Positions 2,247-37,491 of a stretch of 64,000 nt of DNA are shown piece after piece. The notes under the pieces were generated by a model. It was given only the letters and a program-made list of their open reading frames with translations. It had not been told where the DNA came from and ran no database searches. The position numbers and the translations under genes were made by a program. Source of the stretch: a bacterium (GTDB taxonomy: Bacteria > Patescibacteriota > Minisyncoccia > UBA6257 > JAGOQP01); assembly GCA_021814695.1 (NCBI GenBank), contig JAKAHY010000002.1:8920-72919 (forward strand). The letters run 5' to 3'. Numbering within the stretch: position 1 is the first letter of the stretch; every line of letters begins with the position of its first letter.

Positions 2247-2275
2247 AAGGGGTGATCTTATTTTTGTGGAGATGG
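2247..2275. terminator. Terminator hairpin downstream of the GIY-YIG gene
   Basis: ATCACCCgcaaGGGGTGAT flanked by T-runs on both strands. Confidence 0.5.
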
Positions 2276-2290
2276 GAGAGTTGGCTCCGA

Positions 2291-2622: not shown

Positions 2623-2672
2623 AATGCTTCTTGTGCAAGGAGTGCTTGCACTACGAAGCCTTGGCGAAGTAG

Positions 2673-2988
2673 TGGAGATGGCGAGAGTTGAACTCGCGTC
2701 CAGAAAGAGGGATTGAAAGCGTCTACGGGCGTATCTTCTTTTGGAAGCTGATTTGCTTTCTGATTGTCCCTACGGATACGAAAGCGCTTTCCGTGGGTAA
2801 GCCTCAAATATAACACCGGCGATTTCCCCATGAGACATCGGGAGCCGATGGCTTACGCACGAACTAAAAAGTTCTTAAGCGTATGCAAGTGCTACATTTC
2901 TGTTAGCAGATTTGTTTTGGCGGATTTACAAGTCGCCGCTTGACCCGCAACTTTCAAAGAACTCTATCTGTCAAAGCCCAGCATCCCC
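2673..2988 (-). ncRNA. ssrA: tmRNA (SsrA), about 316 nt, encoding the tag ANRNVALAYA*
   Basis: 5' GGGGAUG pairs with 3' CAUCUCC-A and includes the G3·U Ala identity pair. T-arm is GCGAG-TTCAACT-CTCGC. 5' domain reads CUGGGCUUUGACAG. Tag ORF is GCU AAC AGA AAU GUA GCA CUU GCA UAC GCU UAA, followed by the hairpin GAACUuuuuaGUUC. It lies immediately 3' of smpB. Confidence 0.85.
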
Positions 2989-10668: not shown

Positions 10669-13600
10669 ATGTTGAGAAATCTTAAACACTTTAATCCGCC
10701 GGAAATTGAGGAAAAAGTTTTACAGCTTTGGAAAGAAAAAGGGATATTTCAAAAAACACTCAAAGTTCCAAAAGGAAAAAAGGCCCTGCCTACCGGCAGG
10801 CAGGCAAAAATATTTCGGTTTTGGGAAGGTCCACCGACAGCCAATGGCCGTCCCGGAATTCATCATATTTTAGCCCGTTCTTTTAAGGACGTTGTTTTGC
10901 GTTTTAAAACGATGCAAGGGTATACGGTTCCCCGTAAGGGTGGTTGGGATACTCATGGATTGCCCGTTGAAATCCAGGTTGAAAAGCAGCTCGGATTTAA
11001 AACAAAAAAAGATATAGAAGATTACGGAATAGCCGCATTCAACCAAAAATGTAAAGAATCAGTCTGGCTTTATCAAAGCGAATGGGAAAAATTGACCGAA
11101 CGCATGGGTTTTTGGCTGGATTTGAAAAATCCTTATGTCACATACCACAAAGATTACATAGAGTCGCTTTGGTGGATCATCAAACAAGTTTGGGATAAAG
11201 GGTTGATGTATCAAGGGCATAAAGTGGTTCCTTGGTGTACTCGCTGCGGGACAGCTCTTTCTTCCCATGAATTGGCTCAAGGATACAAAGAGCTTACCGA
11301 TACTTCTGTTTACATAAAATTTAAACTTCTTCCAAAACAAAAAATCGGTTCTTTTATAACCGATGATAAAACATACATCTTATCCTGGACGACGACTCCT
11401 TGGACTTTGCCCGGAAACGTCGCTTTGGCAGTCGGAAATAAAATCAAATATATTGCGGCAAAAATCGGAGGAGAGACTTTTATTATTGCGGAAGATCTTG
11501 CCGGATCGGTTTTGGGATCGGAAAATCATAAAGTTATCAATGAATTTAAAGGCGAGTCGATTTCAGGGAAAGAATACGCCCCACTTTTTGAAATTGCGGC
11601 ATTAAAAAAACCGGAATCGTACAAGGTATATCCGGCTAAATTTGTGACAACCACCGATGGAACGGGGGTGGTGCACACGGCCGTAATGTACGGAGAGGAC
11701 GATTATAACCTGGGAAAAGAAGTCGGACTTCCTCAGCATCATACGGTTACCGAACAAGGAACTTTCACAAAAGACGTTAAAGGATTTGAAGGGATGTACG
11801 TCAAAGCCAAGGAGACCGAGGATAAGATACTAGATTATCTAAAGAAAAATAATTTCCTTTTGCAAACACAGGCTTATACCCATGAATATCCTCATTGCTG
11901 GAGATGTGGAACTCCGCTTTTGTATTACGCGCGCAGTTCATGGTTTGTAGCGATGTCGAAACTGAAAGATAATCTGATCGAAAGCAACCAGGGAACCAAC
12001 TGGGTTCCGGCACATATCAAAGAGGGCAGATATGGAGAATGGCTCTCCGAAATTAAAGATTGGAATTTTTCACGGGAAAGATATTGGGGCACCCCACTGC
12101 CGATCTGGACGTGCGAGAATTGTGGAAACCATAAAGCTGTTGGAAGTTATAAAGAGCTTTCGGAACATCTTCCTTCTAGTACCAACAGATATATTCTTGT
12201 CCGTCATGGAGAAGCGGGGCAAAATGTTTCCAATATAATCAACTGCGACCCCAAAGATAAGGATAAATACCCGTTAACAACCAATGGAATAATCCAGGCG
12301 AAGAGAACTTCCCTGAGCCTCAAGAAAAAAATAAAAAAAATAGACGCGATTATCTCGTCGGATTTTATTCGGACAAAGGAAACCGCAAAAATTATCGGCG
12401 ATGAATTTGGAATAAAGAAAATAATCACCGATCCGCTTTTGAGGGAAGTTAACATGGGAGATTTTAACGGGGACAATGTTTCTCGTTACCACGAGTACTT
12501 TTCTTCGCTTGAAGAAAAATTTATGAAACGGACCCCTAACGGAGAAAACCTCAGAGATCTGGCCGCAAGAAGCTACGATTTTATACAAAAATGTGAAAAA
12601 AAATACAGCGGGAAAACTATTGTTGTGGTAGGGCATGAATATCCGCTGTGGATGGCGGAGACCGTTCTTTCTGGATGGAGTCAGGAAGAATCGGTGTCGG
12701 AAAAAGAAAAAAGAGGTCCCGATTTTATAGAAGTCGGAGGATTTGATTCCGTTACTTTTGTTCCGGCATCAAGAGATGAACAGGGAATCTGTGATTATCA
12801 TAAGCCATATGTGGATTCAATCAGCATCCCTTGCGAAAAATGCGGAAAAAAGATGAATCGAGTTAAAGAAGTTGCCGACGTATGGTTTGATTCGGGGTCA
12901 ATGCCATTTGCCCAAGATCATTATCCTTTTGAGAAGGGTGATAAAGTCGGGAAAGCGCCCCAATCGTTTCCGGCCGATTATATCTGTGAGGCAGTCGATC
13001 AGACCCGCGGGTGGTTTTACACTCTTATGGCCGTCTCTACATTATTGGATTATGAAACGCCGTATAAAAACGTCGTTTGCCTAGGGCATATAAACGACAA
13101 GCATGGACAGAAAATGTCCAAATCAAAAGGGAACATTGTTGATCCATGGATGATAATAGATAAATATGGCATTGATGCCGTTAGGTGGTATTTTTACACC
13201 GTTAATGCTCCGGGGGAGCCGAAGAATTTTGACGAGAATGAGGTTGCTAAAGTACTGAGAAAATTCAGCATGACTCTTTATAATTCGTTCGCGTTTTTGG
13301 CGCTTTATGGAAAACAGAAGGTAAGTATCCAAAAGAAACCTTCATCGCCGAATATTTTGGACAGGTGGATTTTGGCAAGGCTAAATCAAACAACTGTCGG
13401 AGTTTCGGACAAAATGGACGCATATGATTTCTTGGCTACCGGACAAATAATAGAATCGTTTATTGACGATCTTTCCAGATGGTACATTCGCCGATCGAGA
13501 AAGAGATTCCAAAAAATTTCGGATAAATCGGATTGGGGTACGGCGACCGGTGTTTTGGCGTATGTTTTGGCCGAATTTTCAAAAGTGATCGCTCCCTTTA

Positions 13601-14223
13601 CTCCATTTTTCGCCGAAGCTCTTTACAGATCCATAGCCGAATTTTGTTCGTTTAGCGCAAAAGAATCCGTTCATCTCGAATCATGGCCGGAGGGCAGGGT
13701 TTTTAATGACGATGCGGTTATGTCGGAAGCCATGAAACAGATAAGAGACTACGCCAGTGCTGTTTTGGCAAAAAGAGCCGAAGTTGGAATCAAAGTGCGG
13801 CAGCCTTTGAGCTTGTTGAAAATAAGAAGCATTAAGTCTAAAGAAAAAGACTCTAAACAATTATTAGAAGTGTTAAGGGATGAAGTTAACGTCAAAGAAG
13901 TTGTGATTGATCCAAAAATAGAAAATGAATTTGAGTTGGATATCAACATCACTCCGGAACTTAAAGCCGAAGGAATTTTGAGGGAAATAGCCCGGACAAT
14001 TCAGGAATTGAGACAAAGTTCGGCATGTGTTCCCAAGGATAAAATAGAAGTTCGCATTTCCGGACCTGCCGACATTGAAGCGGTGGTCAAAAACGGACAA
14101 GCCACGCTTTGCCAATACGTTAACGCCAAAAATATTCTTTTCGGTAAGAGCGGTAAATTTGATTCCGAAATTGAAACCAAAATTGATTCGTCAAAAATTT
14201 GGATAGGTTTAAGAAAAATATAA
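10669..14223 (+). CDS. ileS: Isoleucyl-tRNA synthetase (1184 aa) with an inserted histidine-phosphatase-like domain
   Basis: HIGH region PTANGRPGIHHILARS; KMSKS motif QKMSKSKGN; CP1/editing region; CxxC..CxxC zinc motifs (CENCG ... CEKCG); about 205 extra residues between the zinc knuckles. Confidence 0.95.
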   Translation: MLRNLKHFNPPEIEEKVLQLWKEKGIFQKTLKVPKGKKALPTGRQAKIFRFWEGPPTANGRPGIHHILARSFKDVVLRFKTMQGYTVPRKGGWDTHGLPVEIQVEKQLGFKTKKDIEDYGIAAFNQKCKESVWLYQSEWEKLTERMGFWLDLKNPYVTYHKDYIESLWWIIKQVWDKGLMYQGHKVVPWCTRCGTALSSHELAQGYKELTDTSVYIKFKLLPKQKIGSFITDDKTYILSWTTTPWTLPGNVALAVGNKIKYIAAKIGGETFIIAEDLAGSVLGSENHKVINEFKGESISGKEYAPLFEIAALKKPESYKVYPAKFVTTTDGTGVVHTAVMYGEDDYNLGKEVGLPQHHTVTEQGTFTKDVKGFEGMYVKAKETEDKILDYLKKNNFLLQTQAYTHEYPHCWRCGTPLLYYARSSWFVAMSKLKDNLIESNQGTNWVPAHIKEGRYGEWLSEIKDWNFSRERYWGTPLPIWTCENCGNHKAVGSYKELSEHLPSSTNRYILVRHGEAGQNVSNIINCDPKDKDKYPLTTNGIIQAKRTSLSLKKKIKKIDAIISSDFIRTKETAKIIGDEFGIKKIITDPLLREVNMGDFNGDNVSRYHEYFSSLEEKFMKRTPNGENLRDLAARSYDFIQKCEKKYSGKTIVVVGHEYPLWMAETVLSGWSQEESVSEKEKRGPDFIEVGGFDSVTFVPASRDEQGICDYHKPYVDSISIPCEKCGKKMNRVKEVADVWFDSGSMPFAQDHYPFEKGDKVGKAPQSFPADYICEAVDQTRGWFYTLMAVSTLLDYETPYKNVVCLGHINDKHGQKMSKSKGNIVDPWMIIDKYGIDAVRWYFYTVNAPGEPKNFDENEVAKVLRKFSMTLYNSFAFLALYGKQKVSIQKKPSSPNILDRWILARLNQTTVGVSDKMDAYDFLATGQIIESFIDDLSRWYIRRSRKRFQKISDKSDWGTATGVLAYVLAEFSKVIAPFTPFFAEALYRSIAEFCSFSAKESVHLESWPEGRVFNDDAVMSEAMKQIRDYASAVLAKRAEVGIKVRQPLSLLKIRSIKSKEKDSKQLLEVLRDEVNVKEVVIDPKIENEFELDINITPELKAEGILREIARTIQELRQSSACVPKDKIEVRISGPADIEAVVKNGQATLCQYVNAKNILFGKSGKFDSEIETKIDSSKIWIGLRKI
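10785..10804. repeat. 20-nt GC-rich near-perfect palindrome CCTGCCTACCGGCAGGCAGG inside ileS (encodes ..ALPTGRQAK..)
   Basis: Inverted-repeat arms CCTGCCTA/CAGGCAGG around CCGG; the same palindrome recurs at 36984..37003 in csaA. Confidence 0.6.
12175..12790 (+). other. Inserted histidine phosphatase (phosphoglycerate-mutase-like, branch 1) domain within IleRS
   Basis: YILVRHGEAGQN (RHG catalytic motif with N at +7) ... VVGHEYPLW (second His); inserted between WTCENCG and YHKPYVDSISIPCEKCG. Confidence 0.6.
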
Positions 14224-36855: not shown

Positions 36856-37200
36856 ATGATAAATTATGAAACTTTTAAACAAGTTGAGTTAAAAGTCGCT
36901 AAAGTTTTAGAGGCCGAAAGAGTTGAGGGTTCCGAGAAGCTTTTAAAACTCAGGGTGTCTTTGGGAGCGGAGGAAGAAGCGGACCTGCCTGCCGGCAGGC
37001 AGGTTATTGCCGGTGTCGGAATCAAGTATCAGCCGGAAAATTTGGTCGGCAAAAACATTATTATTGTCGCCAACTTGGAACCGAGAAAGCTTATGGGATT
37101 GGAAAGCCAGGGGATGCTTTTGGCGGCAAGCAACGAAAATGAAGGGCCGATATTGTTGACGACAATGGAAGATATTTTGCCCGGTTCAAATATAAATTGA
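36856..37200 (+). CDS. csaA: tRNA-binding protein (CsaA/Trbp111-type OB-fold domain)
   Basis: FKQVELKVAKVLEAERVEGSEKLLKLRVSLG....IAGVGIKYQPENLVGKNIIIVANLEPRKLMG.ESQGMLLAA. Confidence 0.85.
   Translation: MINYETFKQVELKVAKVLEAERVEGSEKLLKLRVSLGAEEEADLPAGRQVIAGVGIKYQPENLVGKNIIIVANLEPRKLMGLESQGMLLAASNENEGPILLTTMEDILPGSNIN
36984..37003. repeat. 20-nt perfect GC-rich palindrome CCTGCCTGCCGGCAGGCAGG inside csaA (encodes ..DLPAGRQVI.., an apparent 5-7-aa insertion relative to the family consensus)
   Basis: Exact inverted repeat, 22 nt with the A/T flank; the same element occurs at 10785..10804 in ileS. Confidence 0.6.
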
Positions 37201-37281: not shown

Positions 37282-37355
37282 GGGCCTGTAGTAAAACGGT
37301 ATTACGCAGCATTCGCATTGCTGAAGTAGGGGTTCAATTCCCCTCAGGTCCACCA
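37282..37355 (+). tRNA. tRNA-Ala (CGC), CCA encoded
   Basis: GGGCCTG (G3·U70) ... CAGCA-TTCGCAT-TGCTG ... AGGGG-TTCAATT-CCCCT-CAGGTCC-A-CCA. Confidence 0.9.
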
Positions 37356-37359
37356 AAAT

Positions 37360-37406
37360 TATAGTGACATTGCATGAGTGTGGGTTCGGTTCTCGCTGGA
37401 TCTACC
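37360..37406 (+). other. tRNA-like 3' fragment (T-arm-like plus ..CTACCA) immediately downstream of tRNA-Ala(CGC)
   Basis: ATAGTGACATTGCATGAGTGTGGGTTCGGTTCTCGCTGGATCTACCA, which is not the 3' end of the adjacent tRNA. Confidence 0.3.
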
Positions 37407-37491
37407 AAAAACAAATCCCCCCTTAGTTATCTAGTTGACTTTCGGATAACTTTTGATTACTATATCAATATAAATTGATATAGTTTATCAT

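Follow-up and report, generated by a model that had tools for sequence, protein, structure and literature searches.

Rickettsia palindromic elements (RPEs), reportedly described by Ogata et al. in 2000, are palindromic selfish DNA of 100–150 bp that is found in-frame in housekeeping genes and is confined to Rickettsia; to our knowledge, no dedicated enzyme is known for them. Repetitive extragenic palindromes (REPs) and bacterial interspersed mosaic elements (BIMEs) have a GTAG/CGTC head, are extragenic and species- or genus-specific, and are served by a Y1 HUH transposase, the REP-associated tyrosine transposase (RAYT, TnpA-REP). Yeast mitochondrial GC clusters and the "byp" elements of Magnusiomyces are organellar and 30–55 nt long, the former showing target duplications and the latter being skipped by the ribosome. 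As to nucleases, SegB of phage T4 is encoded by a GIY-YIG gene within a tRNA cluster, and the Seg and Tev enzymes exceed 200 amino acids, possess DNA-binding domains and have no palindrome. SLX1 cleaves branched and stem-loop DNA, and GIY-YIG enzymes hydrolyse DNA without forming a covalent intermediate. Here we analyse a 20-nt palindrome, termed P, that occurs twice in a stretch of 64,000 nt from a bacterium of the Patescibacteriota (contig JAKAHY010000002.1, positions 8,920 to 72,919 of the forward strand; hereafter the window), once in ileS and once in a csaA-type gene. P is a near-constant cis companion of cassettes in tRNA genes that encode GIY-YIG proteins of 77–87 amino acids similar to UPF0213 and SLX1, and we consider it fairly probable that both sequences in the window represent solo copies of a mobile 20-bp P, the non-autonomous partner of these cassettes.

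Two Copies of P in the Window

Both copies were found where the original prediction had placed them, encoding ALPTGRQA in the open reading frame (ORF) of ileS and DLPAGRQV in that of the csaA-type gene (Table 1). The first, CCTGCCTACCGGCAGGCAGG, is a single A/C mismatch away from a perfect palindrome and represents a G8A variant of P that is also present in other genomes; the second, CCTGCCTGCCGGCAGGCAGG, is a perfect palindrome, 22 nt long when the flanking A/T is counted. They are read in the same codon phase and both encode LPxGRQ. P has a GC content of 75–80% versus 41% for the window, and single-stranded P is predicted to fold as DNA into an 8-bp stem with a 4-nt CCGG loop (−8 kcal/mol). 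At up to three mismatches there is no other P site in the window, and 100 dinucleotide-preserving shuffles of the window gave no match at this threshold; a search across the window for decayed copies, at up to six mismatches, found none. Half-sites, CCTGCCTGCC, occur in the window only within P itself, which led us to reject the idea that P represents the split terminal repeats of a larger element.

According to Pfam, the hosts are an IleRS and a PF01588 tRNA-binding protein. The latter had been labeled csaA; it is nearer to Trbp111 and the MetRS beta subunit than to CsaA proper, and the original label has to be replaced by that of a Trbp111/MetRS-beta-type protein. In the IleRS, residues 509–673 form a His_Phos_1 domain (E = 4e-28) between segments of the catalytic core, which is unusual for an aminoacyl-tRNA synthetase.

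Each of the two window inserts comprises 21 nt, i.e., P plus one base. In the csaA-type gene, the codons for EADLPAG and the adjoining R-Q-V codons (AGGCAGG) together compose P. Its nearest orthologs (P0004–P0007), 91–93% identical over the aligned part, have 107 instead of 114 amino acids and lack exactly EADLPAG. In the DNA of the relative L121 the 21 nt are absent, and AGA CAA ATT stands where the window reads AGG CAG GTT; Trbp111 (PDB 1pyb) has a 7-residue gap at the insert. An addition of about 5–7 residues had been proposed for this protein; the extra residues are indeed absent from orthologs, and their number is seven (21 nt rather than 20). For IleRS, alignment shows that a counterpart of ALPTGRQ is absent in about 110 of 120 orthologs, and the Thermus thermophilus enzyme (1ile) has a gap there as well; the insert occupies a variable loop that immediately precedes the FxFxEGPPTANG strand. 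Alignment of the host proteins, as proposed originally, therefore yields orthologs without the insert for both genes. The insert-bearing csaA-type protein was encountered with its exact sequence on 10 independently assembled contigs.

An insert at the identical codon position is present in many diverged csaA-type orthologs and is common to a large clade of Paceibacteria-like ones. There, P is preserved at 20 of 20 positions in L255 and at 19 of 20 in L123, L253 and L254, and is decayed in L122 and L252; decayed versions in orthologs read LPATRQ, LPAARQ, SPAVRQ, and LFINRQ. Codon choice for the insert is identical across csaA-type orthologs, and P retains its GC-rich synonymous positions in genes with a GC content at third codon positions (GC3) of 0.34–0.49. 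In a neighbor-joining tree of the csaA-type proteins, long and short forms are interspersed, but with about 100 residues the tree is weak and does not separate one old insertion followed by losses from repeated gains. The csaA insert may thus be old and maintained, recurrent, or derived by conversion. Besides P, the csaA-type gene of a Wolfebacteria member (L255, 301–690; P0099) has a second insert of about 16 amino acids, FTLRSDSPQQDSGQAGK, in a different loop, and other csaA-type orthologs possess different inserts at the P site, GFDPSTGSGQVKQ and GKLETGEDRMRQ. This variety suggests that more hairpin-type inserts exist in these genomes.

Dispersal of P Across Genomes

When a collection of 596 Gb, with one genome per species, was scanned with the pattern CCTGCCTRCCGGCAGGCAGG, the exact 20-mer was found in at least 120 genome stretches from at least eight phyla; by our own estimate, a few occurrences of a random 20-mer would be expected by chance in 596 Gb, perhaps ten given the presence of GC-rich genomes. 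A further 47 stretches with P are from viral contigs, one of which (29.5 kb) harbors six copies. P-bearing genomes have mostly 33–50% GC. They comprise Patescibacteria (Parcubacteria, Saccharibacteria, WWE3, Wolfe-, Uhr-, Davies-, and Doudnabacteria), Bacteroidota including the cultured Winogradskyella echinorum, Flagellimonas yonaguniensis, and Olivibacter oleidegradans, and also Omnitrophota, Planctomycetota, metagenome-assembled genomes of Proteobacteria, Bdellovibrionales, Ignavibacteriae, Nitrospirota, and Chloroflexota. Among the scanned copies, no conservation of the flanks was detected outside the 20 nt.

None of the reading frames of P contains a stop codon and, P being a palindrome, both strands offer the same three, namely PACRQAG, LPAGRQ, and CLPAGR. 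The majority of copies elsewhere are intergenic, in short open stretches, and ten lie deep within long ORFs of non-GC-rich genomes, the hosts including FtsK, the dTDP-glucose dehydratase RfbB, TrpRS, a histidine kinase, and membrane proteins. LPAGRQ, the sole cysteine-free frame, is used in nine of these ten and, with the window copies, in 11 of 12, where one third would be expected. Across the scanned genomes there are far more than two copies, and the orthologs do not carry the same residues without the palindrome, so that the refuting case named in the original prediction does not apply. As for being intragenic and in-frame, this holds for the copies in FtsK, RfbB, TrpRS, and the histidine kinase, most copies being intergenic. 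Orthologs without insert, wide dispersal, and other in-frame hosts together bear out the proposal of a small palindromic insertion element capable of residing in ORFs.

P is also found nested in P at CCG^G (CCTGCCTGCCG-P-GCAGGCAGG in L026, L059, and L065, with the mirror form in L020), in tandem (L126, L132, and L191), and inside cassettes (L231 and L194). In L201, upstream of 1501, an TTGCCTTCGCGAAGCTATGGCGAAGCAAGG palindrome occupies the center of P, and in L195/L196 and L182 further palindromes are nested in or beside P within the pseudo-tRNA piece; several hairpin families appear, from these arrangements, to insert into one another. Many solo copies of P are situated in degenerate 7-nt tandem-repeat arrays, which are frequently long imperfect hairpins between genes (L126, 10560–10680 and 11200–11330; L134, 8396; L105, 629; L152, 6644; L128, 1660). 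A 7-nt direct repeat flanks P in 7.3% of copies versus 0.7% of control positions and stems from these heptamer arrays. We rejected a fixed target motif, as there is a weak bias alone, T being rare at −1 (6%) and A at +1 (8%). A general rule that P enters hairpin loops was likewise not adopted; it is partly supported, several of the stems are P-in-P nests, and neither window copy has a stem.

P Accompanies GIY-YIG Cassettes in tRNA Genes

All-against-all clustering of the ORFs located up to 2.5 kb from 125 P copies gave a single recurrent protein, a GIY-YIG nuclease of 77–84 amino acids, and no other recurrent protein family. Its ORF lies directly beside P in L025, L052, L089, L093, and the viral locus L166. 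From the protein side, 80 metagenome loci were fetched by GIY-YIG similarity alone, and in 50 of the 70 cassettes that were left after removal of near-duplicates, P (up to two mismatches) is present within 130 nt of the ORF. From the side of P, six of the nine GIY-YIG ORFs in P-selected genome loci are at most about 150 nt away from it. The suggestion that P might be a recognition site for a nuclease or recombinase thereby gains ground in its nuclease half, as P is tightly associated with a nuclease gene. Pattern scans yielded approximately 185 copies; a GIY-YIG ORF lies within 150 nt of just seven of them, and about four are in or beside a tRNA, so that about 95% are solo copies without a nearby GIY-YIG gene.

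Two types of cassette can be distinguished. In 43 cassettes of the 5'-type, a pseudo-5' part of a tRNA is followed by a short linker, the ORF, and an intact copy of the same tRNA, and the stop codon of the ORF is often within the first bases of the intact tRNA. The pseudo-copy contains canonical P in 31 of these 43, and of the remaining 12, ten have at this tRNA position either a derivative of P or a palindrome resembling it. Such derivatives are P minus one base, P holding a nested palindrome, and the symmetric variants CCCGCCCG...CGGGCGGG and CCCGCCTG.... In 11 cassettes of the 3'-type, an intact tRNA is followed by the ORF and a pseudo T-arm/3' end, with P in the downstream piece of six. 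Five loci (L188, L192, L204, L214, and L250) are tandem cassettes. Target tRNAs are those for Leu, Arg, Lys, Phe, Asn, Met, Pro, Gly, Val, and Thr. In most cases P flanks the cassette on one side only, and cassette-linked P is confined to the redundant tRNA copy. As the cassette duplicates part of the tRNA, the intact tRNA survives. P was therefore rejected as an intron-like interruption of a functional tRNA, the interrupted pieces being redundant partial copies beside an intact one; removal of P recreates a full tRNA in just two of 185 copies. An Rfam scan of the cassette loci gave tRNA matches only.

When the two flanks of P are joined, the result aligns to the intact tRNA copy without a gap across the junction in 41 of 57 non-redundant cases. 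L052, for example, reads GGGGACGTAGCTCAGTGGTAGA-P-GCAGCGGC where the intact copy reads GGGGACGTAGCTCAGTGGTAGAGCAGCGGC, and L025 and L093 are alike. The non-coding unit is thus exactly 20 nt, without target-site duplication and without loss. In 22 of 30 5'-type cassettes, P follows tRNA nucleotides 20–24, where the D-loop has its 3' end, and in the others nucleotides 9–10, 14–15, or 32; 3'-type cassettes have it where the T-stem meets the T-loop or in the anticodon loop. The duplicated segment spans from about −12..0 to about +28..+46, and P is near its middle. P is upstream of the ORF in the 5'-type and downstream in the 3'-type, never at a fixed distance from it.

Two arrangements deviate from these layouts. 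In L089 (2790–4895), P and then a GIY-YIG domain are in-frame in an ORF for HsdS, the specificity protein of a type I restriction system, between the two target-recognition halves. In L166 (820–1000) and L245, even the "intact" tRNA that follows the cassette is broken: its anticodon stem is succeeded by a GC-rich, structured stretch, perhaps a group I intron or some other element.

The cassette proteins consist of the Pfam GIY-YIG (PF01541) catalytic domain only (E values of 1e-14 to 1e-17), and Y5, Y15, G17, R25, H29, N30, and E61 are invariant in their alignment. The nearest relatives of solved structure are the UPF0213 proteins 1zg2 and 1ywl and SLX1 (7cq2), I-TevI being distant. With the GIY-YIG protein of the window as query, 4,396 protein-cluster representatives were obtained at E ≤ 1e-3. 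No NCBIfam model matches at its curated cut-off, and a weak match of the window protein to the group I intron endonuclease model TIGR01453 is far below it. GenBank records of phages provided distant, uninformative GIY-YIG matches only, and in the literature searched we found neither a mobile-element role nor a palindrome partner for UPF0213 proteins.

Cassette Traces in the Window and in a Relative

The window itself contains a GIY-YIG gene at ssrA, the gene for transfer-messenger RNA (tmRNA), with the layout of a 3'-type cassette (Table 1). There is no P beside this ORF, and the 140-nt spacer between tmRNA and ORF contains three predicted hairpins (z = −7.1). Many representatives of this subfamily have N-terminal strings such as ALRSFSEGG, and two loci of its viral relatives possess CGAAGG/CCTTCG-type hairpins, which hints at each GIY-YIG subfamily having its own hairpin, two viral loci being too small a sample for a firm claim. 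Among the predicted proteins P0241–P0390, 87 of 150 have at least 95 amino acids versus about 79 for the core domain. Of the 59 that were inspected, many start well before the YxVYIL start of the domain, reading through GC-rich DNA, and their long N-termini are probably due to mis-called start codons.

Downstream of the csaA-type gene, the tRNA-Ala of L121 harbors a cassette of a third subfamily, with a perfect 34-nt duplication and without P. At the same tRNA-Ala locus the window has none, which means that this lineage both gains and loses cassettes. L121 (2316–2356) also has, as in the window, a diverged extra 3' half of tRNA-Ala(CGC) after the intact tRNA, probably the scar of a lost cassette.

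Table 1. Features of the window discussed in the text.
Feature	Position	Strand	Remarks
P copy 1	10785..10804	.	CCTGCCTACCGGCAGGCAGG, G8A variant, solo, inside ileS
P copy 2	36984..37003	.	canonical CCTGCCTGCCGGCAGGCAGG, solo, inside Trbp111/CsaA-type gene
ileS host gene	10669..14223	+	1184 aa; Pfam tRNA-synt_1, Anticodon_1
Seven added codons A39-Q45 (ALPTGRQ) in IleRS	10783..10803	+	P plus 1 nt; gap in orthologs and 1ile
tRNA-binding domain protein gene	36856..37200	+	PF01588
Seven added codons E41-G47 (EADLPAG)	36976..36996	+	gap in L121 (21 nt) and 1pyb (7 residues)
GIY-YIG nuclease ORF, 79 aa	2291..2530	-	hidden Markov model match E=2.9e-17; shares the superfamily of the P-associated cassettes, subfamily differs
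Duplicated tmRNA 3' end	2265..2290	-	directly after GIY-YIG ORF; 18/19 identical over CCAACTCTC-CCATCTCCAC
tmRNA gene ssrA	2672..2988	-	upstream of GIY-YIG ORF
tRNA-Ala(CGC)	37282..37355	+	bare in window; carries cassette in L121
Diverged tRNA-Ala 3'-half copy	37362..37412	+	likely remnant of earlier cassette

Discussion

Whereas the association of P with the cassettes is firm, the way in which P might be mobilised is hypothetical. P itself would be the unit of insertion, and the cassette nuclease probably moves it in trans, P relating to the cassette as a miniature inverted-repeat transposable element (MITE) would to its transposon. One might expect a structure-specific nicking or cutting of hairpin or cruciform DNA, followed by insertion of the hairpin, which host repair or ligation would complete. 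A whole cassette would never be tolerable in ileS, and because of this the copy there must have arrived as P alone, in-frame and in one step. In single-copy essential genes, only those events would survive that restore the frame at once, here by P plus 1 nt (21 nt), so that the window copies would be limited to permissive surface loops and to the cysteine-free LPAGRQ frame. More generally, selection may retain P in neutral places such as the spare tRNA piece, terminator loops (L110, L011, L012, L030, and L100), and permissive protein loops. By splitting a direct repeat of 35–45 nt near its middle, a P within the cassette should hinder recombinational loss of the latter, and it would destroy one of the two copies of any target site; cassettes with P may be favored for either of these reasons. 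The formation of solo P by deletion between two cassette-flanking copies was considered and rejected, as it fails for the essential ileS and as P is present at just one side of most cassettes.

Several observations weigh against solo copies of a nuclease-driven element. The link between P and the nuclease is one of association only. A P-cognate nuclease gene is absent from the 64-kb window, and, in the subfamily of the window's own GIY-YIG protein, none of the 150 closest representatives contains a P-coded peptide. The cassette without P in L121 implies that P is not required for cassette insertion. As GIY-YIG enzymes form no covalent intermediate, cut-and-paste by such an enzyme would need ligation or repair by the host. 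Stems of 6 bp or more flank 11% of P copies versus 2.4% of controls, a modest excess outside tRNA contexts. In the csaA-type gene, the insert resides at the identical codon position in orthologs that are just 66–73% identical, and the last 7 nt of P (AGGCAGG) are the native R-Q-V codons; judged from the sequences, this pattern would be explained no less well by homology-guided conversion, or by an old insert that has been maintained, than by a random insertion.

Two other explanations were considered. P might be a cis accessory of the cassette that is not moved by its nuclease, solo copies originating from some other activity or from short-patch gene conversion, and its role might consist in splitting the 35–45 nt direct repeat, in protecting the end of the nuclease mRNA, or in serving as an autoregulatory operator. 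The location of P, always in the redundant tRNA piece, up- or downstream according to type, at no constant spacing from the ORF and near the middle of the duplicated segment, would agree with this, as would the cassette without P in L121, and the overlap of the 3' arm of P with native csaA-type codons together with near-intact P in diverged orthologs is the pattern that one expects of conversion. However, no other recurrent protein family surrounds the 125 P copies, and exact 20-nt insertions at non-homologous sites as well as P-in-P are hard to obtain by conversion alone, so that we consider a mere accessory unlikely. Still less probable, in our opinion, is that the window copies are old immobile relics, co-opted or tolerated and kept by selection on the host genes, with nothing moving in the lineage now. 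The csaA-type position that is common to a large Paceibacteria-like clade, with its spectrum of decayed versions, speaks for relics, and so does a window without decayed or intergenic P and without a cognate nuclease. Yet the nearest relatives, at 91–93% identity, lack the csaA insert, and the tree mixes long with short forms. Moreover, the ileS insert is unique among 120 orthologs, and GC-rich synonymous positions of P have been kept despite a GC3 of 0.34–0.49.

Chance, convergence on LPxGRQ at the protein level, and a sequencing or assembly artefact have in their favor that the window contains just two copies, and we give them practically no credence. The empty shuffles, hundreds of mostly non-coding exact copies elsewhere, and the same codons across orthologs are at odds with chance or convergence; contiguous gene flanks, ordinary decay by point mutation in relatives, the presence of P in cultured isolates, and the 10 independent contigs led us to reject an artefact or adapter.

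The favored reading, a mobile P partnered with the cassettes, has a bolder version that we regard as possible though rather doubtful, namely that P is the smallest known mobile DNA, a 20-bp "nano-transposon" moved in trans by a bare-domain SLX1-like GIY-YIG protein whose own gene homes to the universally conserved sequences of the D-, T-, and anticodon loops of tRNA genes, with a cognate hairpin for each subfamily. P would then be cognate to the REKYLKSG type and the CGAAGG/CCTTCG hairpin to the FEKYLKSGSG type of the window, and the tRNA would be rebuilt by partial duplication after the nuclease gene has homed in. Hairpins might in this way be a recurrent source of in-frame peptide inserts in essential proteins of compact genomes. 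Since a tRNA-loop strategy would need no host-specific homology, identical P and related cassettes could occur from Patescibacteria to Bacteroidota, Planctomycetota, and phages.

Should the partnership be real, it would amount to a very widespread and previously unremarked mobile system with a 20-bp cis element that is conserved base by base across phyla. It would explain recurrent LPAGRQ, CLPAGR, and PACRQAG peptides and odd N-terminal extensions in proteins of uncultured bacteria, as well as many partial tRNA genes beside small GIY-YIG genes. It would also offer a simple pair of nuclease and hairpin with possible use as a tool, and a route by which essential proteins of streamlined genomes gain loop insertions. 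Genome annotators can mask or flag P and correct the ORFs that have been extended through it.

Comparison With Known Systems

Neither the 20-mer, its literal sequence included, nor the cassette was found described in the literature searched, the coverage of which was incomplete, and the novelty would lie in a base-perfect cross-phylum 20-bp palindrome that is paired with a minimal GIY-YIG tRNA cassette. With RPEs, P shares the in-frame insertion into ORFs, a peptide that is absent from orthologs, the preference for permissive loops, and the lack of stop codons in the frame used. In contrast to RPEs, P has only 20 bp, occurs in at least eight phyla, and is tied to a nuclease cassette. Like the REP/RAYT system and the ends of IS200/IS605, P consists of short GC-rich dispersed hairpins without target-site duplication and with a presumed single-copy mobiliser gene. 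However, P starts with CCTG and ends with CAGG, lacks GTAG/CGTC and a conserved flank, and, unlike REPs, has in-frame copies in IleRS, the Trbp111-like protein, FtsK, RfbB, TrpRS, and a histidine kinase. No Y1 HUH RAYT/TnpA was found among the ORFs within 2.5 kb of the 125 P copies, which covers local neighborhoods and not whole genomes. Whereas IS200/IS605 elements have hairpins at both ends, the cassette has P on one side in most cases. P also differs from MITEs by the lack of a fixed-length target-site duplication, its removal restoring the sequence exactly in 41 of 57 cases.

Yeast mitochondrial GC clusters and byps resemble P in being short GC-rich palindromes of AT-rich genomes that are tolerated in protein genes such as var1. 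P is distinguished from them by its bacterial or viral hosts, its length of 20 nt, and, as read from the sequence, its in-frame position in the gene. The cassettes have much in common with free-standing GIY-YIG homing genes such as those for SegB and I-TevI, i.e., a location at tRNA genes, an intact motif, and a presence/absence polymorphism. They differ from Seg and Tev enzymes by a bare catalytic domain of 77–87 amino acids without a separate DNA-binding domain, by the rebuilding of the tRNA through partial duplication, and by a constant palindrome that interrupts the spare copy. By sequence, the closest solved relatives of the cassette nuclease are SLX1 and UPF0213 (COG2827, YhbQ-like), and, by analogy, the stem-loop cutting of SLX1 would fit a hairpin substrate such as P.

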